Of a stretch of DNA of 64,000 nucleotides, positions 18,057 through 32,813 are shown in pieces (within the stretch, counting starts at the first letter, position 1; the number at the start of each line of letters is the position of its first letter). The notes below the pieces were generated by a model. That model was not told the DNA's origin. It ran no database searches and saw nothing but the letters and a program-made list of their open reading frames with translations. Source of the stretch: Escherichia coli (GTDB taxonomy: Bacteria > Pseudomonadota > Gammaproteobacteria > Enterobacterales > Enterobacteriaceae); the NCBI RefSeq assembly GCF_003018255.1, contig NZ_CP027440.1; one strand, written 5' to 3'. Both the position numbers and the translations under genes were made by a program.

Positions 18057-18992
18057 TTATTTCACTTCAACCACATTCAGCCGTAACTCATCCAACTGAT
18101 TTTCATCTTCTTCAGGCTGCCAACCCGCCGGTTGTAGAGGGATCTCTTCGCGATCAAACGCCAGATCACCCCCGTTAACCACTTCAGAACCGTGGGTAAT
18201 ACCTTTGAAATCGAACAGGTTGGTATCGCACAGATGCGACGGCACCACATTCTGCATCGCGCTGAACATCGTCTCGATACGCCCTGGATAACGTTTATCC
18301 CAGTCACGCAACATGTCAGCAATCACCTGACGTTGCAGGTTAGGCTGTGAACCGCACAGGTTGCACGGAATAATCGGGAACGCTTTTGCATCGGCAAAGC
18401 GCTGAATATCTTTCTCGCGGCAGTAGGCCAGCGGGCGAATCACGATATGTTTGCCATCATCGCTCATCAGTTTCGGAGGCATACCTTTCATCTTGCCGCC
18501 GTAGAACATATTTAAGAACAACGTTTGCAGGATATCGTCACGATGGTGACCCAGCGCGATCTTCGTCGCTCCCAGTTCCGTTGCGGTACGATAAAGGATA
18601 CCGCGACGAAGACGAGAACACAGTGAGCAAGTGGTTTTGCCCTCCGGAATCTTCTCTTTCACGATACCGTAAGTGTTCTCTTCCACAATCTTGTACTCAA
18701 CGCCCAGCTTTTCAAGATACTCGGGCAGAACGTGTTCCGGAAAGCCCGGTTGCTTTTGATCGAGGTTAACAGCCACCAGCGAAAAATTGATTGGCGCGCT
18801 TTGCTGCAAATTGCGCAGAATTTCCAGCATGGTATAGCTATCTTTACCCCCGGAGAGGCAAACCATGATGCGATCGCCTTCTTCAATCATATTGAAGTCA
18901 GCAATGGCTTCGCCCACGTTACGACGCAGGCGTTTTTGTAATTTGTTCAGGTTGTATATTTCTTTCTTCGTATTCTTTTGATTTTCTTGCAT
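18057..18992 (-). CDS. ttcA: tRNA 2-thiocytidine(32) synthetase TtcA
   Basis: 311 aa with SGGKDS PP-loop motif and CxxC pairs; its 5' end overlaps the prophage attL. Confidence 0.9.
18943..18957. other. attL core of the Rac-like prophage (TTGTTCAGGTTGTAT), inside the ttcA 5' coding region
   Basis: The same 15-mer recurs at 32764-32778 with diverged but related flanks. Confidence 0.55.
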
Positions 18993-19043: not shown

Positions 19044-20279
19044 CTACGATAACCGCGCATTCAACATGGCTACCTGTTCGTCGTTCATGTCATCAATCCA
19101 CATACCGTAAATTTCATACACCATCTGCGCAGTTTCATGCCCCATCTGGCTGGCTATAAACGCCGGGTTCGCTCCTGCCGTCAACAGCCAGCAGGCAAAA
19201 GTATGCCGCGTATGGTACGGATTACGGCGGCGAATACCAGCACGTTTTACTGCTGCATTCCATCTCGCACCCAAACTGCTTACCGAGTAATAAGGTTTCT
19301 GTTTTCCGTTACACACTCTGGGCATGAAAACAAAATGCAGTTTTTGCTTTTCGGTTCTGCCGTACTCCCGATGATAAAAAGTGATTTCGCTTTTGCGATG
19401 ATGCCCGGTCAGTTTGTATTGCTCCTTCAGTGCTTCAAGAGCAGGCTGCAGTAGTGTTACCGTCCGGATCCCCGCATTTGTTTTTGGGGGACCGAACATA
19501 TCAAGTATCGTCAGGTTTCTTCTGACATTCACAACTCCCTTCTCGAAATCCACATCCTCCCACGCCAGAGCAGCCAGTTCCCCGTGACGAAGCCCGGAGT
19601 ATACGGCAAATTTCCACAAGTTCTGGCTCTGTCCTTTTTCACTTTCCATTAATGCATTGAATTCTGTTTTAGATAACGGGTCAGGCTTTATTCTGTTTCT
19701 CTGTAATTTTTTTACTCCTTCAAATGGTTTGGTTGATATAAATCCCGACTGATACGCAAAACGTAACAACGAACAGAGCAGGGCGATATAATTATCAACT
19801 GTGCGCACGGTTCTTCCTTTTTTGTTGGATCTTGGATTATCTAGGTAAAGCGTTTCTCCATGCAGCAGTTCATTCCGGTAGTTTAAGATATCGCTATAAC
19901 GAATATGCGATATCGGGGTACTCTCACAAATTATTATCCTGAGTGTTTTTAATTGTGATTTCGTTTTCTTCATTGTGTTTGTTGTTAACTCTGTTTCTTT
20001 AATTTTTGTCCAGATATCACAAAGCTCCCCGAACGTTTTTATGACCCTCGTTGTCACCATTTTTGCCCCAGTGCTGGACTGGGGAAAACGTCTTAAATAC
20101 TCAAACTCACCGGAATTGATTTCATGAACTATCAACGCTCTTAAATTCCCGGCTTTTTTAATGTTACTGTTAGTAACCTCCCAGCCTTTCAATGTTTCCC
20201 GACATCGTTTTCCTCGAAACATGAACCAGATGCGAATGTATTTACCTCGAATCTCGACACCTGTTGGTAATTTAGACAT
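19044..20279 (-). CDS. intR: Rac prophage tyrosine integrase IntR
   Basis: 411 aa with a C-terminal tyrosine-recombinase catalytic region (HxxR ... Y); immediately inside attL. Confidence 0.9.
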   Translation of the reverse strand: MSKLPTGVEIRGKYIRIWFMFRGKRCRETLKGWEVTNSNIKKAGNLRALIVHEINSGEFEYLRRFPQSSTGAKMVTTRVIKTFGELCDIWTKIKETELTTNTMKKTKSQLKTLRIIICESTPISHIRYSDILNYRNELLHGETLYLDNPRSNKKGRTVRTVDNYIALLCSLLRFAYQSGFISTKPFEGVKKLQRNRIKPDPLSKTEFNALMESEKGQSQNLWKFAVYSGLRHGELAALAWEDVDFEKGVVNVRRNLTILDMFGPPKTNAGIRTVTLLQPALEALKEQYKLTGHHRKSEITFYHREYGRTEKQKLHFVFMPRVCNGKQKPYYSVSSLGARWNAAVKRAGIRRRNPYHTRHTFACWLLTAGANPAFIASQMGHETAQMVYEIYGMWIDDMNDEQVAMLNARLS

Positions 20280-20280
20280 A

Positions 20281-20496
20281 TCATGAGTCTTTGATAAACT
20301 GATTTATCTTTGGATAGTTGTACCAGATAATTCCTCGCTTACTGTCTGGCTTCCCTAAAGGAGATACTCGTTTGAAGTGGAAGCCTTCCACCCAACAGTT
20401 CTGGCGGTATGCTTCAATTTGTCTGGCCCCCAGACCAGTGCGAAGCATCAGGCCGTATTCAACCATCCACTCTTCATTAAAGATTACTTGTGCCAT
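20281..20496 (-). CDS. xisR: excisionase-like protein XisR (YdaQ)
   Basis: Start at [11 protein letters not shown] gives 71 aa; directly upstream of intR. Confidence 0.7.
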
Positions 20497-20595
20497 CGCA
20501 TTACCTCTGGCAGGCGCCAATGTTAGACTTAAATTGACGCCCGATGTTGATTATTAATAATCAGCTATGAAGTTTTAATTTGAATACAATGCAAT

Positions 20596-20796
20596 TCACG
20601 AGGACTGAAGTTTCTCGCAATTAAAATTTATCAGTTTTACTTTCTGCTCTCTGGAAACGCCTGCTTCTTTTTTACCTGAGAGCATTTTTTCGCATTCTGA
20701 TTTAGTTAGTTTATATTTTGAATATCTTGTCCAGTTAGTAGGAGTGCCACCTTCCTTTTCAATAGTGGCGGTAATTTTATACATGAACACCTCCAT
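20596..20796 (-). CDS. rcbA: Rac prophage protein RcbA (YdaC)-like
   Basis: ORF 20596..20856; contains MYKITATIEKEGGTPTNW...; exact start is ambiguous (Met at 20796 or 20784). Confidence 0.5.
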   Translation of the reverse strand: MEVFMYKITATIEKEGGTPTNWTRYSKYKLTKSECEKMLSGKKEAGVSREQKVKLINFNCEKLQSS

Positions 20797-20971
20797 TATT
20801 ATTTCCAGTGGTTCGTTTATTCCATCTTTCGAGTGCTTCTTTTTCACTTCCACCATAACCGGTTCGGGATTCGCATCCGTTACACTTCGCTCGGTAATAT
20901 CCTGAAATGGCTTTCACCGTTACTGATGGACAACCACAAAATGGACATGGTTTAACATTGTCATATCTCAT
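20777..20971 (-). CDS. ralR: restriction alleviation protein RalR (Lar), zinc-finger small protein
   Basis: Start at MRYDNVKPCPFCGCPSV gives 64 aa with two CxxC pairs. Confidence 0.75.
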   Translation of the reverse strand: MRYDNVKPCPFCGCPSVTVKAISGYYRAKCNGCESRTGYGGSEKEALERWNKRTTGNNNGGVHV

Positions 20972-21027
20972 AATTTTTCTCATAAAAAATATTTCAAGTT
21001 GGCGGTGCATTACACCGCCAGGCTGAA

Positions 21028-21843
<816 letters not shown>

Positions 21844-21909
21844 ATTTTATAACCCAGAACGGGCGTCAGAAATGACGCCTTTTTTATTGCAGAAAAGCGA
21901 GAGGTAATT

Positions 21910-22509
21910 ATGCGTAAACTTTATGCCGCCATTTTGTCCGCAGCCATTTGTCTGGCCGTATCCGGTGCGCCTGCATGGGCGTCTGAACATCAGTCCACGC
22001 TGAGCGCGGGGTATCTTCATGCCCGGACGAACGTTCCCGGCAGTGATGATCTGAACGGGATTAACGTGAAATACCGTTATGAGTTTACGGACACACTGGG
22101 GATGGTGACGTCATTCAGCTATGCAGGAGACAAGAATCGTCAGCTGACCCGTTACAGCGATACCCGCTGGCATGAAGATTCCGTTCGTAACCGCTGGTTC
22201 AGCGTAATGGCGGGGCCGTCTGTGCGCGTGAATGAATGGTTCAGCGCGTATGCGATGGCGGGTGTGGCTTACAGCCGTGTGTCGACTTTTTCCGGGGATT
22301 ATATCCGCGTAACTGACAATAAGGGGAAAACGCACGATGTGCTGACCGGAAGTGATGACGGTCGCCACAGCAACACGTCTCTGGCGTGGGGGGCTGGCGT
22401 GCAGTTTAACCCGACCGAATCCGTGGCCATTGATATTGCTTATGAAGGCTCCGGCAGTGGTGACTGGCGCACTGACGGTTTCATCGTGGGTGTCGGTTAT
22501 AAATTCTGA
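21910..22509 (+). CDS. lom: Lom/Ail/OmpX-family outer-membrane beta-barrel protein (prophage Lom)
   Basis: 199 aa with signal peptide, alternating beta-strand pattern and C-terminal GYKF. Confidence 0.85.
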   Translation: MRKLYAAILSAAICLAVSGAPAWASEHQSTLSAGYLHARTNVPGSDDLNGINVKYRYEFTDTLGMVTSFSYAGDKNRQLTRYSDTRWHEDSVRNRWFSVMAGPSVRVNEWFSAYAMAGVAYSRVSTFSGDYIRVTDNKGKTHDVLTGSDDGRHSNTSLAWGAGVQFNPTESVAIDIAYEGSGSGDWRTDGFIVGVGYKF

Positions 22510-22573
22510 TTAGCCAGGTAACACAGTGTTATGACAGCCCGCCGGTTCAGGCGGGCTTTTTTGTGGGGTGAAT

Positions 22574-25500
22574 ATGGCAGTAAAGATTTCAGGTGTACTG
22601 AAAGACGGTGCAGGTAAACCGGTACAGAACTGTACAATCCAGCTGAAAGCAAAACGTAACAGCACCACGGTGGTGGTGAACACGGTGGCCTCAGAAAATC
22701 CGGATGAAGCCGGGCGTTACAGCATGGACGTTGAGTACGGTCAGTACAGCGTTATTCTGTTGGTGGAAGGATTCCCGCCGTCACATGCCGGGACCATCAC
22801 CGTGTATGAAGATTCCCGACCCGGTACGCTGAATGATTTTCTCGGTGCCATGACGGAGGATGATGCCCGTCCGGAGGCTCTGCGCCGTTTTGAACTGATG
22901 GTGGAAGAGGTGGCGCGTAACGCGTCCGCGGTGGCACAGAACACGGCAGCCGCGAAGAAATCAGCCAGCGATGCCAGCACATCAGCCCGTGAGGCGGCAA
23001 CCCATGCGACTGATGCTGCAGATTCAGCACGTGCAGCCAGCACGTCAGCCGGACAGGCCGCTTCGTCGGCTCAGTCAGCGTCTTCCAGCGCAGGAACGGC
23101 ATCAACAAAGGCCACTGAAGCCTCAAAAAGTGCTGCCGCTGCAGAGTCCTCAAAAAGCGCGGCGGCTACCAGTGCCGGTGCGGCGAAAACGTCAGAAACG
23201 AATGCGGCAGCGTCACAACAATCAGCAGCCACTTCTGCATCCACCGCGACCACGAAAGCGTCAGAAGCTGCCACCTCAGCCCGGGATGCGTCGGCCTCAA
23301 AAGAGGCAGCGAAATCATCAGAAACGAACGCATCATCAAGTGCCAGTAGTGCAGCTTCCTCGGCAACGGCGGCAGGAAATTCCGCGAAGGCCGCAAAAAC
23401 GTCTGAGACGAATGCAGATAACAGCGCACAGGCGGCAGCAGACTCACAAACTGCATCAGCAAACTCCGCGACAGCAGCCAAAAAATCAGAAACCAACGCG
23501 AAAAATAGCGAGGCAGCAGCAAAGAGCAGCGAAACCAACGCTAAAGCCAGCGAAACTAATGCTAAATCCAGTGAAACAAACGCGGCGAAATCTGCGGCGG
23601 ACGCACTTAATTATCGCAACCAGGCGCAAGTAATTGTTGGCGATAATATCGGTCTTGGTGAAGTTGCCATGACCTGCACTGATATCTCTGTTGAGCCATC
23701 AGGTTATATTGGATTTGTCAGGATTTACATCTCAGCGAAAGGTTATCCATCAGTAGCGTCTAGTGCCGGTGATAATCTTATTTCTGGTTATATAGTTAGA
23801 TCAGAAGTGTCAACAAAAAGATATTCCGGTCTATTTGTTGGTTCAGATACAAAATCATTGTATTCGTACATTTACAGCCAAAGTTCTGGCCCGCAATGGA
23901 TACGTCATACCCGCAGAGATGAATTAAGCCGCTTTGGTCAAAATGAATCAACAACTCGTATGTATGGTCCAACTGGTGATCGTTTCTTTGAAATCCATAC
24001 TAACGGGAGTTGGGGAGTTTATGATTCTTCTTCTGGACAATGGTCTCCGTTAGGTTTAGCCCAGGGCGGTACTGGTGGAAGAACTATCGAGCAAGCACGT
24101 GCGAACTTGCGGGTAATGTATGAGCAAAAAGCTGGCCTTGCTAATACTGACCTAAACACCCTTACCGGTGAATATTCTGGTTTCTATCAACAACCAACGA
24201 GCGCTTACGCAACAGAAGAATTAAATTACCCAATCGGTCTGGCGGGCGCTTTAATAGTGCTCCAAACGAGAGCCAACACTGCTTCTTCCTGCGTTCAGGT
24301 GTACTACCCTTATAATAATCCGGGAATTACTTATAGACGAATATATGAAGGAGGAAGCGGTACCTGGTCTGAATGGAAGAGAGATGTATCAACAGAAAGG
24401 GTTGAAGAGGGAAAAGAAACAACTTACGTATATTCTACGTATTCTTCAGGCGCACCACGCTTACAGGTTTCCAAATCTGGTTTGTGGGGTTGTCATAATG
24501 GCACTGGCTGGTTGCCATTAGCTGTTGGGCAAGGAGGTACAGGTGCGACAACAGTAGAAGATGCGCGAAACAACTTAAGTCTTGGCGAAAGTAGCGCAGT
24601 TAAATTTAAAAACCTTACTTTAACCGAAGCGCTCGACACGACATTAGGACTGCTTACAAAAACAGGACGAGACTGGAACACGCAGCATACTGATAACATT
24701 AATAAATTTATACCAATTGCAGGCAGTACAAACGGCCCGGCAGGTTCTATGGTTCTTGGCGGCATTCATGTTCAATTTAGTAAAAATTATGCTGTGCAGT
24801 TCGGAGGCCGCAATTCCGGTTTTTGGGGAAGAACAATTGAAAATGGAACGACGCAGGAATGGAAGAAATTACTAACAGTAGACGATCTCAATTCATCTAC
24901 CGATCTTGCTGTCAGGTCATTAACCACATCTAACCCGGTAAAATCTGGCGGAGGGCGAATTGATGTCCTTGGAAGCACGTCAGACTATAGCAAAATGGAT
25001 TGCTTTGTACGTGGGTTTGATAGCACCGGTAATTCTCTCGCGTGGGCGTTGGGTTCATCAGTCGGCGTAAGTAAGATGCTGTCGCTAAAAAATTTCTTTA
25101 GCGGAGCTGAGATACTGTTAAATGGTAATGACGGCGCGGTTCAACTCAAAACAGGTGCTGTTAACGGGGCTAAAGCGCAGGCGCTCACTATCAACAAGGA
25201 TGAGGTTAACTCAACTGTTGATTTAACTCTTACAAAACAAACAGGGACTGGAAATCGTTTTGTTTTACAGAACTTAGGTAATACAGAACTATCATTTGCC
25301 GCAAAAGTATGGGGATCAAGTGATCGACAAAACGTTTTTGAGGTTGGAACGTCTGCTGCGTATCTGTTTTATGCGCAAAAAACGTCAGCAGGCCAGTTGT
25401 TTGATGTAAATGGCGCTATTAATTGCACAACGCTGAATCAGTCATCAGACCGCGACCTTAAAGACGATATTCTCGTTATCAGCGACGCGACGAAAGCAAT

Positions 25501-25879
25501 CCGTAAAATGAACGGATACACCTACACGCTCAGGGAAAACGGGATGCCTTATGCTGGCGTTATTGCACAGGAAGTAATGGAGGCGATACCAGAAGCTGTG
25601 GGATCGTTTACTCATTACGGTGAAGAGTTGCAGGGACCAACGGTTGACGGCAATGAATTACGTGAAGAAACACGTTATCTGAATGTTGACTACGCCGCCG
25701 TGACGGGGTTACTTGTTCAGGTCGCCCGTGAAACAGATGGTCGCGTTACCGCGCTGGAAGAGGAAAACATAACGCTACGTAAAAATCTGGCAACAGCAGG
25801 CACCCGGATCAGCACTCTGGAAAATCAGGTAAGCGAACTGGTTGCACTTGTCGGGCAGTTAACAGGAAGCGAACATTGA
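22574..25879 (+). CDS. stf: side tail fibre protein (lambda Stf-like N-terminus, Ala/Ser-rich repeat shaft, C-terminal endosialidase-type intramolecular chaperone / peptidase S74-like domain)
   Basis: Start MAVKISGVLKDGAGKPVQNC resembles the lambda Stf N-terminus; long AAxxSxTxA repeat region; C-terminal SDRDLKDD ... coiled-coil tail typical of self-cleaving fibre chaperone domains. Confidence 0.8.
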   Translation: MAVKISGVLKDGAGKPVQNCTIQLKAKRNSTTVVVNTVASENPDEAGRYSMDVEYGQYSVILLVEGFPPSHAGTITVYEDSRPGTLNDFLGAMTEDDARPEALRRFELMVEEVARNASAVAQNTAAAKKSASDASTSAREAATHATDAADSARAASTSAGQAASSAQSASSSAGTASTKATEASKSAAAAESSKSAAATSAGAAKTSETNAAASQQSAATSASTATTKASEAATSARDASASKEAAKSSETNASSSASSAASSATAAGNSAKAAKTSETNADNSAQAAADSQTASANSATAAKKSETNAKNSEAAAKSSETNAKASETNAKSSETNAAKSAADALNYRNQAQVIVGDNIGLGEVAMTCTDISVEPSGYIGFVRIYISAKGYPSVASSAGDNLISGYIVRSEVSTKRYSGLFVGSDTKSLYSYIYSQSSGPQWIRHTRRDELSRFGQNESTTRMYGPTGDRFFEIHTNGSWGVYDSSSGQWSPLGLAQGGTGGRTIEQARANLRVMYEQKAGLANTDLNTLTGEYSGFYQQPTSAYATEELNYPIGLAGALIVLQTRANTASSCVQVYYPYNNPGITYRRIYEGGSGTWSEWKRDVSTERVEEGKETTYVYSTYSSGAPRLQVSKSGLWGCHNGTGWLPLAVGQGGTGATTVEDARNNLSLGESSAVKFKNLTLTEALDTTLGLLTKTGRDWNTQHTDNINKFIPIAGSTNGPAGSMVLGGIHVQFSKNYAVQFGGRNSGFWGRTIENGTTQEWKKLLTVDDLNSSTDLAVRSLTTSNPVKSGGGRIDVLGSTSDYSKMDCFVRGFDSTGNSLAWALGSSVGVSKMLSLKNFFSGAEILLNGNDGAVQLKTGAVNGAKAQALTINKDEVNSTVDLTLTKQTGTGNRFVLQNLGNTELSFAAKVWGSSDRQNVFEVGTSAAYLFYAQKTSAGQLFDVNGAINCTTLNQSSDRDLKDDILVISDATKAIRKMNGYTYTLRENGMPYAGVIAQEVMEAIPEAVGSFTHYGEELQGPTVDGNELREETRYLNVDYAAVTGLLVQVARETDGRVTALEEENITLRKNLATAGTRISTLENQVSELVALVGQLTGSEH

Positions 25880-26086
25880 TATCCTTCAAGCCCTGAAGGA
25901 GGCTGTTCCTGGTACGTTCAGACTGTTGTTGAGCTGGAAATCGCAACGGAGGAAGAAACTTCGTTGCTGGAAGTCTGGAAAAAGTATCGGGTGTTGCTGA
26001 ACCGTGTTGATACATCAACTGCACCTGATGTTGATTGGCCAGCAGCACCGAAGTGTAATTCATTAGAACTCATCACCTGTGAATAA
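25880..26086 (+). pseudogene. orphan 3' remnant of a tail-fibre-assembly (tfa) gene
   Basis: In frame with stf immediately after its stop, no start codon; encodes ...[29 protein letters not shown]..., a Tfa-type C-terminal motif by recollection. Confidence 0.45.
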
Positions 26087-26687
26087 TATCTGTTTTTGAG
26101 TAAGTTAGTAATAATCACTTAAATGTGTTATGAGTTTGTTGAGGCGTGATTTGCAATAGGATAGAGAGTACGATTATGGATTGAGAATAAGAAAGCGCCA
26201 TGAAAGAGTTTCATGGCGAGTACATAAACGTACAAAATATGATGAAAGTAGAGTGGCATAAGCCACTATGTTAACTTATAGCAATAGGGAAGATAAGTAA
26301 ATAATATTTCTTGAGTATAGTGTAAGTCGTTCATTGTAAAGCGTTAATGTTATCTATATTGTTTATCTTAAAATAAGGTGTATAAACCAAACTTTTGAGC
26401 TAAAAGTTTAAAGAGTATTAGTGCAAAAATAATGTTTAATAAGATAATCAATTTGCTTTGTATCTTCATTTCGAAAGATTGCTAAGTAACGTTAATTACC
26501 AAAACGATAGATCAGAATTATCTTAGAGTCAATGACTTTAGGTTTGTTTATAATGTAAATATTTTCTATTTGTTATAAGTTTTCTTAATATAGTCACCCA
26601 TGCAACTTGTTCCGTGTGGAGATTAAAGGTTAAAATTTAATGCGAAGATGGAATTATATTATATTTGTTATAATTAATTTAACCTTA

Positions 26688-26770
26688 ACATCGTTGCTGG
26701 CGGCATGGAAGAAATATCGGGTCTTGCTGATGTCGTGTTGGCACTTCCTTAGTGCCGGATATCGAGTGGC
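26688..26770 (+). pseudogene. second, frameshifted tfa-like C-terminal remnant
   Basis: Encodes ...[10 protein letters not shown] then, after a +1 shift, RVGTSLVPDIEWPAAPIG; a degenerate direct repeat of 25955-26060. Confidence 0.3.
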
Positions 26771-26987
26771 CAGCTGCACCTATAGGGTAAAAATATAGTT
26801 CTATATGGGAGCGCTATTTTTACAATATAAATGCTGAACGGAAGAATCTAACCAGTTACAAAAAACATAGTTATGTAATCCAGTTGCCTGGGCATGCGTG
26901 TGATGTTGATAGCTATTACTGTATCTTCCGTTCACTTACCTTATTGTGAACAGTTATATATAATTTGATCTGCTCTTATTCAGCCTG

Positions 26988-28190
26988 CTAGGCTGCTGTA
27001 AATCTTCGATACTTTCTTAACATAAAGATCATGATTAGAATAATTGAAAGTAAGTAAACAATCCAAATGGTGATATTTCGTTCAATTAAAAAGCTACCAA
27101 TTCCGCCGATCACTGAAGGAATCACCAGAGAAGCGGCCCCCATTAACGCAGATGTGGCACCCAGACTGGTACGTTGGCTGGACATAGTTAGGTAAGTATA
27201 AAGTGATTCGAACATACCTCCGGCAAACATCAAAACAATGAAGAATAATATAAAAACATTGACATGATGAACGAATATTATTAGCGGAGTGCACAATACG
27301 ATAAATGAAGCAATGAGCTTCAGCCATAAACTCAAAATTTGTGGTGCAGACCGCTTCTTAAGTAGTTTACCTGATAGTGCTGCTCCCAGCAGAAGGAATC
27401 CTCCAATAATTGATGAGATAACACCAAATTGCGTAGATGAGTATCCATACTTAACCATCAAAATAAATGGGGAAGCTGTGACATAACAATAAATTAGAGA
27501 GAATGAAAGTCCAAGAGAAAGGCAAGGTAGATAAAATCTTGGTTGCTTACTTATCTCTTTGTACGTAAGAAATGATGATTTTAGTGAATATGTAATCCGT
27601 TTTTTATGACTGAGTGTTTCAGGGAAGTTAAAATAGACATACGTTAATGTTACAACAGAATATCCTAATATCATTAGAAAAATTGCACGCCATCCCCATA
27701 CATCATTAATTATTCCTCCCAGCAGTGGAGAAGCAATAGGCACGACACCTTCAATAGTTATGATAATAGCGTACAGTGTAGCAGCCACTGAACCGCGTGT
27801 TACATCACGAACGGCACTAATTGCTGTAACCAGAGTTATTGATATAGAAAGCCCCTGTATGATGCGTATTGTAAGAAACGTACCCAATCCGGTCGAGAGT
27901 GTGAGGCAATATGTTGTCACACAATAAATAATAGCACCTGAAAGCATAATTCTTCGACGACCAATAGAATCAGATAATGGGCCAAAAATTAGCTGTCCAA
28001 AACCTATACAAAGGGTATAAACCATGATAGACAATTGCATGGACGGGATGTTTTGTCTAAATTCTTTTGCGATGTCAGGAATTGAAGGCAAATAAGTGTC
28101 CACACCTAGAATGCCCATAATAGTCAGCAGCGATAGGCCAATAGTAAAGAAAAGTATATTCTTTCTGTGAATAACAACTTGTGATTTCAT
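26988..28190 (-). CDS. MFS transporter (12-TMS, Bcr/CflA-like drug:H+ antiporter family), AT-rich foreign gene
   Basis: 400 aa, highly hydrophobic, with the MFS signature GPLSDSIGRRR after TM2; GC content visibly far below the flanking DNA. Confidence 0.8.
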   Translation of the reverse strand: MKSQVVIHRKNILFFTIGLSLLTIMGILGVDTYLPSIPDIAKEFRQNIPSMQLSIMVYTLCIGFGQLIFGPLSDSIGRRRIMLSGAIIYCVTTYCLTLSTGLGTFLTIRIIQGLSISITLVTAISAVRDVTRGSVAATLYAIIITIEGVVPIASPLLGGIINDVWGWRAIFLMILGYSVVTLTYVYFNFPETLSHKKRITYSLKSSFLTYKEISKQPRFYLPCLSLGLSFSLIYCYVTASPFILMVKYGYSSTQFGVISSIIGGFLLLGAALSGKLLKKRSAPQILSLWLKLIASFIVLCTPLIIFVHHVNVFILFFIVLMFAGGMFESLYTYLTMSSQRTSLGATSALMGAASLVIPSVIGGIGSFLIERNITIWIVYLLSIILIMIFMLRKYRRFTAA

Positions 28191-28952
28191 TATTTATCAC
28201 CATGAATAAATTAAAAGAATGAAAAAAACTCCATTTAAATGGAAGGAGGTGGATAATTATCGTGTAGGCAATACAACAGAGTTGAAAAGAACTGTCAAAC
28301 TTTTAACTCAAAAAAGTGAGATGTGAATCACAGACATAAAAATCATCTTTTTCAGCCCTATGGTTCAGTTAAATTTGATTGTTATCGTACGAAGGTTTGA
28401 ACGTGTGTGTGCGTATGCGGTATTTTTTCTTGCGAGTGCCGGAGTTATGAGAGCGTTGTATTAACCTTCATAATCTGACCTATTCAATTGATTCCAGTAC
28501 ACCAATGGGTATTTTGGTGTTATGGTATGTGACTCCAAATAAAATGGAGCGTGAACTGATAGTTGTGCGAACAAAAGTCGGACTAGAAACCGCTCGGGTA
28601 CAGTGGCGAATTGGAGTTGGCGACCCAAACTGACCTAGGAACAATCGTTGCAGATCGGACGATTAATTTCATCAGAAATTCCTCGCTAAAAGGTGGCTAT
28701 CACTGTGATGTTAACGTATCTAATTTGTACAAGAAATTTCTGCGGGGGAAAATGAAACCGCAGACTCGTTGTATGCAAAAACGTGCTGCGGCTAACTGGT
28801 GAACTTTCGATAGTGCGGGTATTGAATGATTTCTAGGCGTTATCGATTTTACGTATTTTTTGCATGATAGAATTCGTACCTCCTCCCAACGACCTTCCAT
28901 GGCTTTCCGGACTTCTGTAGGCCGGCGGACGATGCTGTCCTCGGATGTTGTG

Positions 28953-29810
28953 CTAATTGGGTGATAACAGATCCTGTGTATGGGAGTTTCCCTTTGTGCG
29001 TGCGTTGATGCTGGTAACGGTAAACGTCATGATGAACACGACCGCGAATAAGACGACAATCGTCGGAGCTGGTGCGCTGTCGATAAAAAAGGACAACCAG
29101 ACACCAGTCATTGACACTATTACCGATATGCCAGTCGCCAGTAGGAGCGCAATATGAAAGCGTTGTGTCAGGAGTACCGCAATGGCGCCAGGCGCTATGA
29201 GCAGAGAAATGGAGAGAATGATACCTACCGCTTTCAGCGTCGCCACAATGGTCAGAGAGACCATGCACAGCAGCCCATAATGCAGCCATCTCGTATGCAA
29301 ACCGCTTACCTGCGCCTGTTGATAATCAAAGCTGAACAGCAAAAAATCCCGCCATTTTACGCTAATAACAAGTGTAACCAGCCCGGCAATAATCATCGTC
29401 TGGATTATATCGCCGATGGTTATCCCGAGCATGTCGCCGAAAAGAATATGGTCAAGATGTACGTCTGGTTTGACTGCAATATACAAGATCAGACCTGCGG
29501 CAAACATGCCAGAAAAAACAATCCCCATCACTGTATCTTGCTTGATTCGGCTGTTGTCTTTCAGGTATCCCGTCGCCACCGCGCAGAATACTCCGGCGAC
29601 GAATGCCCCTGTAGCTAAAGGTAACCCCAGAATCCAGGCAAGCACGATGCCAGGAAAAACTGCATGACTCATCGCGTCACCCATCAGTGCCCAACCTTTC
29701 AGGACCAGAAAGACCGACAGCAGCGCACAGGGTATGGAAACTACCAGTGAAATCAGCAGTGCGTGACTCATAAAGGTGAACTGCAGTGGCTCCAGTAATA
29801 ATGCCATCAT
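28953..29810 (-). CDS. sitD: Mn/Fe ABC transporter permease SitD
   Basis: 285 aa integral membrane permease; last gene of the four-gene operon; overlaps sitC by 4 bp. Confidence 0.9.
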   Translation of the reverse strand: MMALLLEPLQFTFMSHALLISLVVSIPCALLSVFLVLKGWALMGDAMSHAVFPGIVLAWILGLPLATGAFVAGVFCAVATGYLKDNSRIKQDTVMGIVFSGMFAAGLILYIAVKPDVHLDHILFGDMLGITIGDIIQTMIIAGLVTLVISVKWRDFLLFSFDYQQAQVSGLHTRWLHYGLLCMVSLTIVATLKAVGIILSISLLIAPGAIAVLLTQRFHIALLLATGISVIVSMTGVWLSFFIDSAPAPTIVVLFAVVFIMTFTVTSINARTKGNSHTQDLLSPN

Positions 29811-30664
29811 GAGCGATCCTCCAGCGCCTTATGCGCACGCCGACGATTTGCCAAAAGCCCATGGGTGGGCGCAAAGACAAATGCTAAAAGAAACAGCAGT
29901 GTCTGCGCCACCACGATGATTCCACCTGTCGCGCCGTCCAGAAAGTAACTGACCCACGAGCCGAGGAAACTGGTTACACTGCCAATAGTTACAGCAATCA
30001 TGAGCAGGCGGGGAAAACGATCGGTTAACAACCATGCTGTTGCACCGGGAGTCACCACCAGACAGATCACCAGAAAGGCACCAACCGTTTGCAGCGCCGC
30101 AACGGTCGAAACCGACAGCAGGGTGAAGAAGAGGAGTTTTAATCTGCCCGGATGCAATCCAATAGCACGGGCGTGATTCTCGTCGAAAAAGGTCACCATA
30201 AGATCTTTCCATTTGAAAAAAAGCACGATGATCGAGAGAATGCCAATGATAGTGAGTTGCAGGATATCCGCCGGATCGATTGCCAGAATATTGCCCAGGA
30301 CGATGGTCTGAATGTTCACAGATGTCGGGTTCAATGACACCATAAACAGCCCCAGGCCAAAAAAGGATGAGAAGATCAGGCCGATGATGGCATCTTCTTT
30401 TAAGCGGGTGCGTTGGTTAAGAAACAGCATGCTGCCCGCAGCCAGTCCGCCGGAAAAGAAGGCTCCCAGAGAAAACGGAAGCCCCAGCATATATGCTCCC
30501 GCAACACCCGGGACAATAGAGTGCGACAACGCATCGCCAATCAGCGACCAGCCTTTTAGCATCAGATAGCATGACAGGAAAGCGCAGAGACCGCCGACCA
30601 TCGCCGAGACCCACATCGCATTGAGCATATATTCATAGCTGAAGGGTTCCAGTAGCACGTTCAT
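29807..30664 (-). CDS. sitC: Mn/Fe ABC transporter permease SitC
   Basis: 285 aa permease paralogous to SitD; 4-bp overlaps on both sides. Confidence 0.9.
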
Positions 30665-31488
30665 CTTTCTTCCCTCTGCACCGCTGACGGTCGATGAGCC
30701 ACAAAAGGGCGTTCATCGTCAGTAATAATGCTTTCTTCCGAGCCGTTAAGTGTGACATGGCGCAGTACGCCGCTAAAAGCCAGCTCCAGGTTCTCGGCTG
30801 TAAAAGTGGTGTCTGTCGGCCCGCTTGCCAGGACGGTGCCTTTGACCATGACCGTATAATCGCAAAATGTCGTGACGGATCCGAGATTGTGTGTTGAGAC
30901 AAGCATCGTTTTGCCTTCCGCGCGTAACTCCCTCAACAGGCTGATGATTTTGGCTTCGGTTTTCACATCAACGCCAGTAAAAGGTTCATCCAGCAGGATC
31001 ACATCACCCTGCTGTGCAATCGCTCTCGCCAGAAAGACGCGTTTCTTTTGTCCACCGGAAAGCTCGCCGATTTGTCGATGGCGAAAATTCACCATATCGA
31101 CACGTTCCAGCGCATCGGTGACAATTTGACGATCCCTCTTTTTGGCGATACGCAACATACCCATATGCCCATAGCGGCCCATCATCACCACATCTTCCAC
31201 CAGTACAGGAAATGACCAGTCAACCTCTTCTGACTGAGGGACGTAGGCAACCAGGTTTTTCTGTAACGCCTGTCGCGTGGGAATACCCAGAACAGATATC
31301 TTTCCGCTGGTCAGACGCACAAATCCCATAATCGCTTTAAACAACGTCGATTTTCCGGAACCGTTTACCCCAACCAGAGCGGCAATAGATCCACTTGGTA
31401 CTGTGAAGGATGCATCGCGCAGTGCTGTGTGCCCGTTACGCCAGGTGACAGTAACATCATTAACGACAATGCCTGCAGATTGCATCAT
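30661..31488 (-). CDS. sitB: Mn/Fe ABC transporter ATP-binding protein SitB
   Basis: 275 aa with Walker [13 protein letters not shown] signature LSGGQKKR and Walker B ILLDEP. Confidence 0.9.
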
Positions 31489-32402
31489 TATTTCTCCCTT
31501 TTCCCGGCTTTAATTCCCTGTACCAGCGTACTGGTAGTAACCTTAAGAAGGTCGATATACGTCGGTACCGGGCCGTTTTCTGTGCTCAGGGAATCGACAT
31601 AGAGCACACCGCCGTAGTGTGCGCCGGTTTCACGCGCAACCTGACGCGCTGGTTTATCGGAAATCGTACTCTCGCTAAAGACTGCCGGGATATGATTTTT
31701 CTTAACTATATCAACAACCTTACGTACCTGTTGCGGTGTTCCTTGTTGATCGGCATTAATCGGCCACAGATAAAGCTCTTTTAGCCCCAAATCGCGTGCG
31801 AGATAAGAAAAAGCCCCTTCACTGGTGACCATCCACCGCTGATTCTCAGGGAGTTCCGTAATCTGCTTACGCAGGGGGGCAAGGGTTTGGGTAATCTTGG
31901 CTTTATAAGTATCGGCATTACGTTGGTAGGTTTGTGCATTAGCGGGATCGTATTTTATCAACGCATCACGAATATTATCGACGTAAATCAGAGCATTATC
32001 TGGCGACATCCATGCATGGGGGTTAGGTTTGCCCTCATAGGGGCCTTCGGTGATCCCTACTGGCGTCACACCCGAAGAGACAATTACTTCTGGAACCCCA
32101 TTGAGATGCTGGTAAAAGCGTTGGAACCACAATTCCAGATTCATACCATTGGCGAGGATCAGTTGTGCCCCCTGCGCACGTTTAATATCGCCAGGGGTAG
32201 GCTGATACTCATGAATTTCTGCACCGGGCTTGGTTATGGATGAGACTTCTGCAGCATCTCCAGCCACGTTTTTGGCCATATCCGCGATGATGGTAAATGT
32301 TGTAATGACCTTGAATTTTTCAGTTGCACTTGCCTGAAATGCGATCGAGCAGGTGAGGGCGAGGCACCCCAAGAGCATGGTTACTTTTTTTATTGAGTGC
32401 AT
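31488..32402 (-). CDS. sitA: periplasmic Mn/Fe-binding protein SitA (cluster A-I substrate-binding protein)
   Basis: 304 aa with signal peptide; first gene of the operon; 1-bp overlap with sitB. Confidence 0.9.
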
Positions 32403-32763: not shown

Positions 32764-32813
32764 TTGTTCAGGTTGTATTGTTCTTTCTTACTAATTTCTT
32801 GATTTTGCGACAT
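32764..32813 (-). pseudogene. ttcC: ttcC: duplicated ttcA 5' fragment at attR (core TTGTTCAGGTTGTAT at 32764-32778)
   Basis: Reverse strand encodes MSQNQEISKKEQYNLNK-stop, paralogous to the TtcA N-terminus [17 protein letters not shown]. Confidence 0.6.

Follow-up and report, generated by a model that had tools for sequence, protein, structure and literature searches.

Among lambdoid phages, the moron concept of Hendrix and Juhala is represented by elements of the lambda bor and lom type. Fibres of the Peptidase_S74 type fold with their own self-cleaving intramolecular chaperone, and the Pin/Gin/Cin/Hin invertible segments use 26-bp crossover sites with the consensus TTNTCNNAAACCNNGGTTTNNGANAA. 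YncL is a stress-induced small membrane protein whose production leads to sublethal membrane depolarisation, nucleoid condensation and less protein synthesis (PMC12542507), and in Salmonella yncL lies on a short sigma-S-dependent transcript that was first catalogued as the small RNA (sRNA) STnc1110 (PMC5437024). Here, a stretch of 64,000 nucleotides of an Escherichia coli chromosome (contig NZ_CP027440.1; referred to as the window, the numbering of which is used throughout) was analyzed, in which the 3′ remnants of two tfa genes lie in direct orientation on either side of an AT-rich block, namely module M (26087–26681).

The tfa region would belong to a decayed lambdoid prophage, as its mosaic right arm, and would hold three separate things: remnant 1, remnant 2 and module M. 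We consider it probable that, taken as a whole, remnant 1 is the scar of a fibre-cassette exchange, remnant 2 the trace of an old join, and module M a moron-like unit with a gene for a YncL-like peptide.

A 33-codon open reading frame in the AT-rich block

In lambdoid prophages and phages, module M occurs as a conserved block behind the 3′ end of tfa. Its GC content is about 25–35% (24.5–34.5% across 26100–26699), compared with 45–50% in the fibre gene and tfa, and in this respect the preliminary description, which had called the spacer AT-rich, was correct. Nothing in module M is annotated by the NCBI Prokaryotic Genome Annotation Pipeline (PGAP), and the spacer had also been described as being without credible open reading frames (ORFs). 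That statement did not hold. A minus-strand ORF of 33 codons plus a stop codon (26469–26368; MKIQSKLIILLNIIFALILFKLLAQKFGLYTLF), predicted to encode a single-pass small membrane peptide resembling YncL, was intact, and always 33 codons long, in all 23 distinct homologous sequences (28 loci). Given that an in-frame stop lies six codons upstream, the ATG at 26469 is the first possible start.

Two main alleles of the ORF were found, the second of which is MKIQSKLIVLLNIIIAFILFELLAQKFGLSTLF. The alleles differ by 19 nucleotides, distributed 7/1/11 by codon position, with five conservative amino-acid changes (∼81% identity), and the ratio of nonsynonymous to synonymous substitution rates (dN/dS) between them was 0.08 according to the Nei–Gojobori method. 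When the same substitutions were re-placed randomly, five or fewer amino-acid changes without a stop codon were obtained in 0.02% of 20000 trials (P = 2e-4). The unambiguously placed indels between the alleles of module M were all located outside the ORF, and one 5-nt gap abutted the ORF stop codon in the automatic alignment. Based on this substitution pattern, we concluded that the 33-codon ORF is, as judged from the sequences compared, a real protein-coding gene under purifying selection.

Several further ORFs of module M were set aside. The other minus-strand ORFs (22, 28, 30 and 43 aa) and a plus-strand ORF of 26 aa are broken in most homologues. A 24-aa plus-strand ORF (26200–26274) is intact in 22 of the 23 sequences only because it lies in the conserved 3′ untranslated region (UTR) of the small gene, and its allele differences, examined by eye, are all amino-acid-changing. 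A 22-aa plus-strand ORF with a TTG start (26458–26526) is intact in 23 of 23, and was set aside for its overlap with the start and 5′ UTR of the small gene.

The sole NCBIfam match of the peptide was YncL (NF000537, an equivalog model), with scores of 23.5 and 25.0 bits (E = 3.7e-5 and 1.3e-5) over 28 of the 30 profile positions. In an ungapped Smith–Waterman comparison with YncL of K-12 (b4598; MNVSSRTVVLINFFAAVGLFTLISMRFGWFI), a score of 61 was obtained, compared with 20 ± 4 for composition-preserving shuffles, none of which reached 61 in 20000 trials. The ORF product resembles YncL in size (33 vs 31 aa) and can be aligned with it, ungapped and collinear, over positions 1–30, from Met1 to the (R/K)FG motif; both have a polar N-terminus followed by one hydrophobic helix, and a short monocistronic transcript, predicted for the ORF, is a further likeness. 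In contrast to yncL of K-12, which occupies a core-genome locus (1517099–1517194) between patD and ortT, the ORF sits in an AT-rich phage module after tfa; it also differs in having a long conserved 3′ UTR and in lacking a Shine–Dalgarno sequence such as the AGGTGG of yncL. On this evidence the peptide is a putative distant YncL-like paralogue, not YncL itself. It would insert in the inner membrane of the lysogen and modulate membrane potential or stress physiology, a role that we infer by analogy with YncL.

Several points weigh against the reading of this ORF as an expressed YncL-like gene. For the selection test, essentially just two diverged alleles and some minor variants were available, and the ORF has no recognisable Shine–Dalgarno sequence. 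The score of 23.5–25 bits against the YncL hidden Markov model is below the NCBI cutoff of 35, so the peptide is at best a distant paralogue. The promoter candidate described below is just a 9-of-12 match to the consensus, and shuffles of the region give as many. Among approximately 15 billion predicted proteins the ORF occurs just three times, unnamed, and there is no independent annotation of it.

A profile search of 1.84 billion representatives returned two entries only (the same allele and a frameshifted variant), with no distant relatives and no YncL, at a database size for which a 24-bit relationship cannot reach significance. Nothing meaningful was obtained for the 33-aa peptide from Pfam or PHROGs. 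A degenerate N-terminal codon pattern searched over viral contigs gave 120 loci, all of which were the two known alleles or chance matches. The exact 33-codon ORF was contained in four phage records; a tblastn comparison of the peptide and of YncL with the phage collection nevertheless gave no match, presumably because the hydrophobic queries are masked by the low-complexity filter, and is thus uninformative. A full-text literature search revealed no prior description of the peptide or of YncL in prophages.

Module M as a moron-like transcription unit

When the 604 bases 26087–26690 were used as a query, matches were found in 828 of 5426 complete E. coli genomes, 814 of which covered at least 80% of the query. 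The identity of these matches was mostly 76–81%, and few reached 95% or more. Module M was observed at the ydfJ, bio/ybhB, argW and Rac attachment (att) sites, and also in the phages mEp332, ev099 and PhiR70_1 (four records deposited as complete genomes, representing three phages), where it comes immediately after an intact tfa; it is missing from the Rac and Qin ends of K-12. An exact 27-mer of the 3′ UTR was scanned against one genome per species and gave a single match, in a 1552-bp contig (JAIJJM010000739.1; L135) of a metagenome-assembled genome named ‘Collinsella sp.’, which is probably a misbinned E. coli prophage contig. The scan of species representatives thus gave no evidence of module M outside E. 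coli, an exact-match search being insensitive.

The allele of the window and the common allele of module M are 97–100% identical to the right of ∼26585 (26585–26827). To the left (26087–26584) they are 57–83% identical per 30-nt block, with the exception of the conserved 3′ end of the small gene. The identity step at ∼26585 therefore indicates a recombination breakpoint inside module M, just upstream of the promoter candidate of the small gene.

In minus-strand order, the unit would comprise a promoter-like site, the YncL-like peptide gene, a conserved structured 3′ UTR and a terminator. The sigma-70-like promoter candidate found by consensus scan (26532–26504, minus strand; TTGACT-17-TATCGT, with TATTGT in the other allele) is located 35 nt upstream of the ORF ATG, in a block conserved between the alleles. 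The conserved 3′ end of the predicted minus-strand transcript (26275–26186) contains a hairpin (AGUGGC-UUAU-GCCACU) and, after a U/A-rich linker that has a small hairpin of its own, an intrinsic terminator, CGCCAUGAAA-CUC-UUUCAUGGCG (26218–26196, minus strand), with a 10-bp stem and a U-rich tail, which is kept between the alleles. The fold of this 3′ end had a minimum free energy of −25.8 kcal/mol (z = −6.85 relative to 200 shuffles), and a consensus structure was obtained with RNAalifold. The 3′ segment is 93–97% identical between the alleles, compared with 57–83% per 30-nt block elsewhere in the divergent part of module M (26584–26262), and its few changes are located in loops or convert A-U into G-U pairs. 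This conservation hints at a constraint at the RNA level.

We interpret module M as a moron. Its base composition is distinct, and related phages differ in whether they carry it. As with the lambda bor and lom type, it is an extra block with a promoter-like site and a terminator, placed beside the tail-fibre genes near the prophage end. It differs from bor and lom in that its product is just 33 aa long and unannotated, and in that its expression from the prophage is a prediction. Module M would be a moron-like transcription unit on the strand opposite to the late operon, with which it is convergent.

An alternative that is compatible with this explanation is that the main product of module M is an RNA, with the 3′ end (26275–26186) acting as an Hfq-type sRNA (a derivative of the 3′ UTR or an independent transcript) and the ORF being secondary. 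The 3′ segment is indeed better conserved between the alleles than the ORF (93–97% vs ∼81%); its hairpin, U/A-rich linker and terminator with a U tail, its z-score and the confinement of its changes to loops or A-U to G-U replacements agree with such an RNA, as does the first cataloguing of Salmonella yncL as an sRNA (PMC5437024). However, no Rfam family matched the 3′ segment, the near-invariance of the segment leaves no covariation, the DNA immediately upstream yielded no promoter, and the high conservation of the segment may also come from a recent recombination tract. We consider an RNA as the main product rather unlikely. In a combined form, module M would be a widespread, hitherto unannotated unit of lysogenic conversion in lambdoid phages of E. 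coli and a dual-function RNA, with a 5′ half encoding a phage-borne YncL-family peptide that tunes the membrane potential of the host and an ultra-conserved 3′ end acting as an Hfq-type sRNA. We regard this as a speculative and unlikely proposal; if true, the dual-function module could serve, for example, stress tolerance, persistence or the exclusion of superinfecting phages.

Two other readings of module M proved harder to maintain. If the spacer were non-coding filler (decayed cargo or AT-rich junction DNA), the 33-codon ORF would be due to chance and the conservation to recent prophage kinship. The empty PGAP annotation, the missing Shine–Dalgarno sequence, the many combinations of ATG and TAA expected in AT-rich DNA and the mere three database entries that call the ORF are in line with filler. 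Yet the alleles differ at 19 of the 99 ORF positions while the frame, the length and 28 of the 33 residues are kept (7/1/11; P = 2e-4), most other ORFs of the window in module M are broken in the other allele, and the similarity to YncL is far above composition-matched chance, which makes filler a very unlikely explanation. The other reading, a type I toxin–antitoxin module in which a hydrophobic membrane toxin is checked by an antisense or overlapping sRNA and which stabilises the prophage, is comparably improbable. A hydrophobic 33-aa peptide, a short and structured predicted transcript, and the membrane depolarisation and lowered viability caused by YncL production (PMC12542507) would suit such a module. 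However, consensus scans, which are weak evidence, revealed no plus-strand promoter-like site inside module M, so that an antisense sRNA is provisionally lacking; the only plus-strand terminator-like hairpin (26522–26542) is not conserved in the other allele; no Rfam match to a known antitoxin RNA was obtained; and YncL itself has no known antitoxin. The moron-like unit encoding a YncL-like peptide thus remains the preferred reading of module M.

Origins of the two tfa remnants

The preliminary description had reported a second, frameshifted tfa-like tail in the same orientation approximately 730 bp downstream of the first, and this was borne out by the alignments. The repeat consists of two blocks, 25957–26000 vs 26687–26730 (82% identity; spacing 730) and 26003–26049 vs 26734–26780 (70% identity; spacing 731). 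Given the change in spacing from 730 to 731, one extra base at ∼26731–26733 frameshifts remnant 2. In a gapped local alignment of 25957–26058 with 26687–26790, 78 of 106 columns were identical, and the score of 66 was far above chance when compared with 500 dinucleotide-preserving shuffles of 26087–27000 (18.8 ± 2.1, maximum 32; z = 22). Both tails also matched the Pfam family Caudo_TAP (PF02413; profile length 131, gathering score 22.1 bits): remnant 1 with 69.4 bits over profile positions 87–131, and remnant 2, after correction of the frameshift, with 37.7 bits over positions 101–130. A full-length Tfa has ∼190–200 aa and spans the whole profile, as do the intact comparators of 193 aa (L005) and 202 aa (strain AR436; L136); neither tail does so. 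Both segments are pseudogene fragments and not functional members of the Tfa family. In the 99.9%-identical locus L001 and in related loci, RefSeq/PGAP already labels both as tfa pseudogenes, remnant 2 being worded as ‘frameshifted; incomplete’. The tfa remnants are thus ordinary, already-annotated scars of mosaic phage recombination. Sub-threshold matches to the Rfam candidate sRNA family RF02111 ‘IS009’ (25819–26019 and 26675–26750; 91.7 and 32 bits, gathering score 117) were rejected as evidence of an sRNA, because the consensus of this model is tfa 3′ coding sequence and the matches merely restate the tfa homology.

Remnant 1 (25917–26086, plus strand) consists of the last 55 codons and the stop codon of tfa, readable in a single frame, and lacks the N-terminal three-quarters of the gene; its identity was established by its translation, the Caudo_TAP match and the PGAP pseudogene in L001. 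It follows a side tail fibre gene of 1103 aa (22568–25879, plus strand), whose product has a prophage tail-fibre domain at its N-terminus (Pfam phage_tail_N, 240.8 bits) and a ‘chaperone of endosialidase’ domain at its C-terminus (Peptidase_S74, 45.6 bits, residues 960–1011). In strain AR436, the same Rac/sit site and the same neighbourhood from lom to sit contain a non-S74 stfR followed by an intact tfa of 202 aa, the tail of which, including its unusual C-terminal end, equals remnant 1 of the window. When 21900–27100 of the window was compared with AR436 by BLAST, the identity was 96.9% over 21900–23415 and 98.7% over 25917–27100, with no similarity between. The sole segment that differs from the stfR–tfa locus of AR436 is therefore an S74-type fibre cassette of 2.5 kb (23416–25916, plus strand), which consists of the distal fibre, intramolecular chaperone included, and 37 further nt, so that the right junction lies 37 nt past the fibre stop codon.

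According to this comparison, which directly supports the reading of remnant 1 as the footprint of a cassette exchange, the 2.5-kb cassette took the place of the distal stf region and of the first ∼440 nt of tfa. Since the new fibre tip has its own S74 chaperone, it should be able to do without Tfa. The right junction (25916/25917) recurs in identical form in the prophages L003, L004 and L007, at the argW, ydfJ and bio sites; together with the window, it thus occurs in four loci at different att sites, which suggests one original event that was spread via homologous recombination. The locus agrees with the tfa remnants known from fibre-module exchange in lambdoid, P2 and Mu-like phages with S74 fibres (PF13884), in that an S74 fibre gene ends 37 nt ahead of remnant 1 and the intact form of its tfa occurs at the same site in another strain. 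It differs from them in that remnant 2 is tied to the acquisition of a module and not to a demonstrable fibre swap; nothing else about it is unusual. Hence, the proposal that the tails are footprints of successive tail-fibre cassette exchanges stands for remnant 1, and fails for remnant 2, which travels with module M and is also found behind intact tfa genes. The window and AR436 form a clean before-and-after pair, in which a self-chaperoning S74 cassette replaced a Tfa-dependent fibre, with the N-terminal portion of stf as one homology arm and the tail of tfa as the other.

Remnant 2 (26687–26790, plus strand) contains the last ∼34 codons and the stop codon of a different, older tfa allele, read as 18 residues in one frame and then VGTSLVPDIEWPAAPIG* in the next frame owing to the +1 frameshift at ∼26731–26733. 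The series of tfa tail, AT-rich spacer and remnant 2 also occurs behind an intact tfa in L005 and L006. Four combinations were observed: intact tfa with remnant 2 (L005, L006 and L136), intact tfa without remnant 2 (phages mEp332 and ev099), S74 fibre and remnant 1 with remnant 2 (the window, L003 and L004), and S74 fibre and remnant 1 without remnant 2 (L007). Within the 5426 complete E. coli genomes searched, the spacer end, remnant 2 and the downstream DNA were found together in 580, the spacer only, with homology ending at 26681, was found in ∼230, and none had the DNA beyond remnant 2 while lacking the spacer. Remnant 2 was 74–78% identical to every tfa tail compared, its neighbour included. 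Because it is equidistant from all of them, it is an old remnant and not a recent copy of its neighbour.

The indels of remnant 2 vary by locus, with an extra 1-nt deletion in L004 and L005. At L004:5800–5900 and L005:4640–4700 (corresponding to 26770–26780 of the window), this second deletion restores the tfa frame, with the end ...AVIEWPAVPVG*, and gives an ORF of ∼50 aa from an ATG inside module M. Because the frame varies among the loci, this ORF was taken as pseudogene decay, and a plus-strand ORF of 52 aa that runs into remnant 2 was set aside on the same ground. The last stretch common to the other prophages with remnant 2 is 26791–26827 (the BLAST alignments with L003–L006 end at 26827), past which the window departs into MFS/sitABCD cargo. 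At other att sites, remnant 2 is followed on the minus strand by a gene for a 65-aa hypothetical protein without a Pfam match (WP_000348576/WP_001438255; L004:6000–6197, L005:4825–5022 and L006:4824–5021), and from 26828 the window has the MFS/sit cargo in place of this DNA.

The simplest history of remnant 2 appears to be an illegitimate join between phages. One old event of this type would have put a donor segment of tfa and module M onto a recipient phage, at a point ∼100 bp short of where the recipient tfa ends; the tfa tail of the recipient, now redundant, would then decay by frameshifting indels differing between loci. A point against this history is that neither the phage collection nor the E. 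coli genomes yielded the ancestral recipient, in which an intact tfa would run straight into the DNA that now follows remnant 2; this account of how remnant 2 arose is therefore a model and not an observation.

Alternatively, remnant 2 could have arisen in situ, by insertion of a moron near the end of tfa with duplication of ∼100 bp of the tail and later divergence of the downstream copy. The layout of complete tfa, module M and the last 100 bp of tfa is the expected product of this event as well. However, remnant 2 is no nearer to the neighbouring tfa than to unrelated alleles (74–78% for all), and module M without remnant 2, with other DNA after 26681, is found in ∼230 genomes and in mEp332 and ev099, a distribution that a junction of two phages fits better. 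In-situ duplication is thus doubtful, and the join between phages is preferred.

That the two tails are the scrambled remains of a Pin/Gin/Cin-type invertible host-range segment is extremely improbable, and this origin can be regarded as effectively refuted and excluded for practical purposes, in keeping with the preliminary description, which had argued against it from the direct orientation of the repeat. As in Mu G/Gin, P1 C/Cin, e14 P/Pin, K-12 Rac pinR and Qin pinQ, two tfa-type 3′ ends lie close together past a side tail fibre gene, and the Rac and Qin prophages of K-12 carry tfa and then pinR/pinQ at the equivalent position. The region differs from these segments, however, in that the repeat is direct; inverted alternatives of the fibre/tfa ends are absent, as is a second C-terminal segment of stf. 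The crossover-site consensus (hix/gix type; up to three mismatches) had no match in the whole 64-kb window, and the ORF list of the window contained no invertase-sized ORF between 25880 and 26988: between the fibre stop (25879) and the MFS gene (26988), no overlapping ORF exceeds 84 aa and none wholly inside exceeds 66 aa.

Prophage setting and significance

At the Rac (ttcA) site, the E. coli chromosome carries a lambdoid prophage with extensive deletions, and the tfa region lies in the right arm of this prophage. The gene ttcA (18057–18992, minus strand) is followed by a tyrosine integrase gene (19044–20279, minus strand), small early-gene fragments, a C-terminal fragment of the tail tip protein J (21202–21843), lom (21910–22509) and the side tail fibre gene. 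Nearly all early, lysis, head and tail DNA is gone from the prophage (20280–21843), and a RecT-like C-terminal fragment (21028–21273, minus strand) adjoins the C-terminal fragment of J. The fibre shaft (22950–23640) contains a long, low-complexity repeat rich in Ala, Ser and Thr (SETNAK/SSETNA motifs), with a GC content of up to 65% and a strong AT skew, and this repeat creates spurious ORFs of considerable length in other frames and on the complementary strand. To the right of remnant 2, a Bcr/CflA-type MFS transporter gene (26988–28190, minus strand) is followed by sitDCBA and then uspF. A 26-nt direct repeat (92% identical), located at 18943–18968 beside ttcA/int and at 32764–32789 between sitA and uspF, represents the att-core repeat flanking the prophage. 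Because these repeats flank them, the MFS transporter and sitABCD (26988–32402) are cargo inside the prophage boundaries.

Two other loci at the same Rac/sit site have a different junction in this arm. In strain 41 (L002:5309–6001), a ‘GREB1-related protein’ pseudogene is fused directly to module M at ∼26110 of the window, and in L001:5181–5867 a pseudogene of the same name is fused to the fibre gene, of which the final 135 nt are left. These junctions are further independent deletions in the right arm of the prophage.

The tfa remnants matter little in themselves, and the unannotated small gene is a modest novelty. DNA that is annotated as empty in ∼15% of complete E. coli genomes, and in deposited phages, appears to carry a gene resembling yncL under purifying selection, and this 33-codon gene illustrates how annotation pipelines miss genes of such a small size. 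Small membrane proteins of the YncL class have recently been shown to depolarise the membrane and to shift cells to a low-activity state, and a phage-carried YncL-like copy would be a novel case in which a factor of this kind is provided by a prophage.

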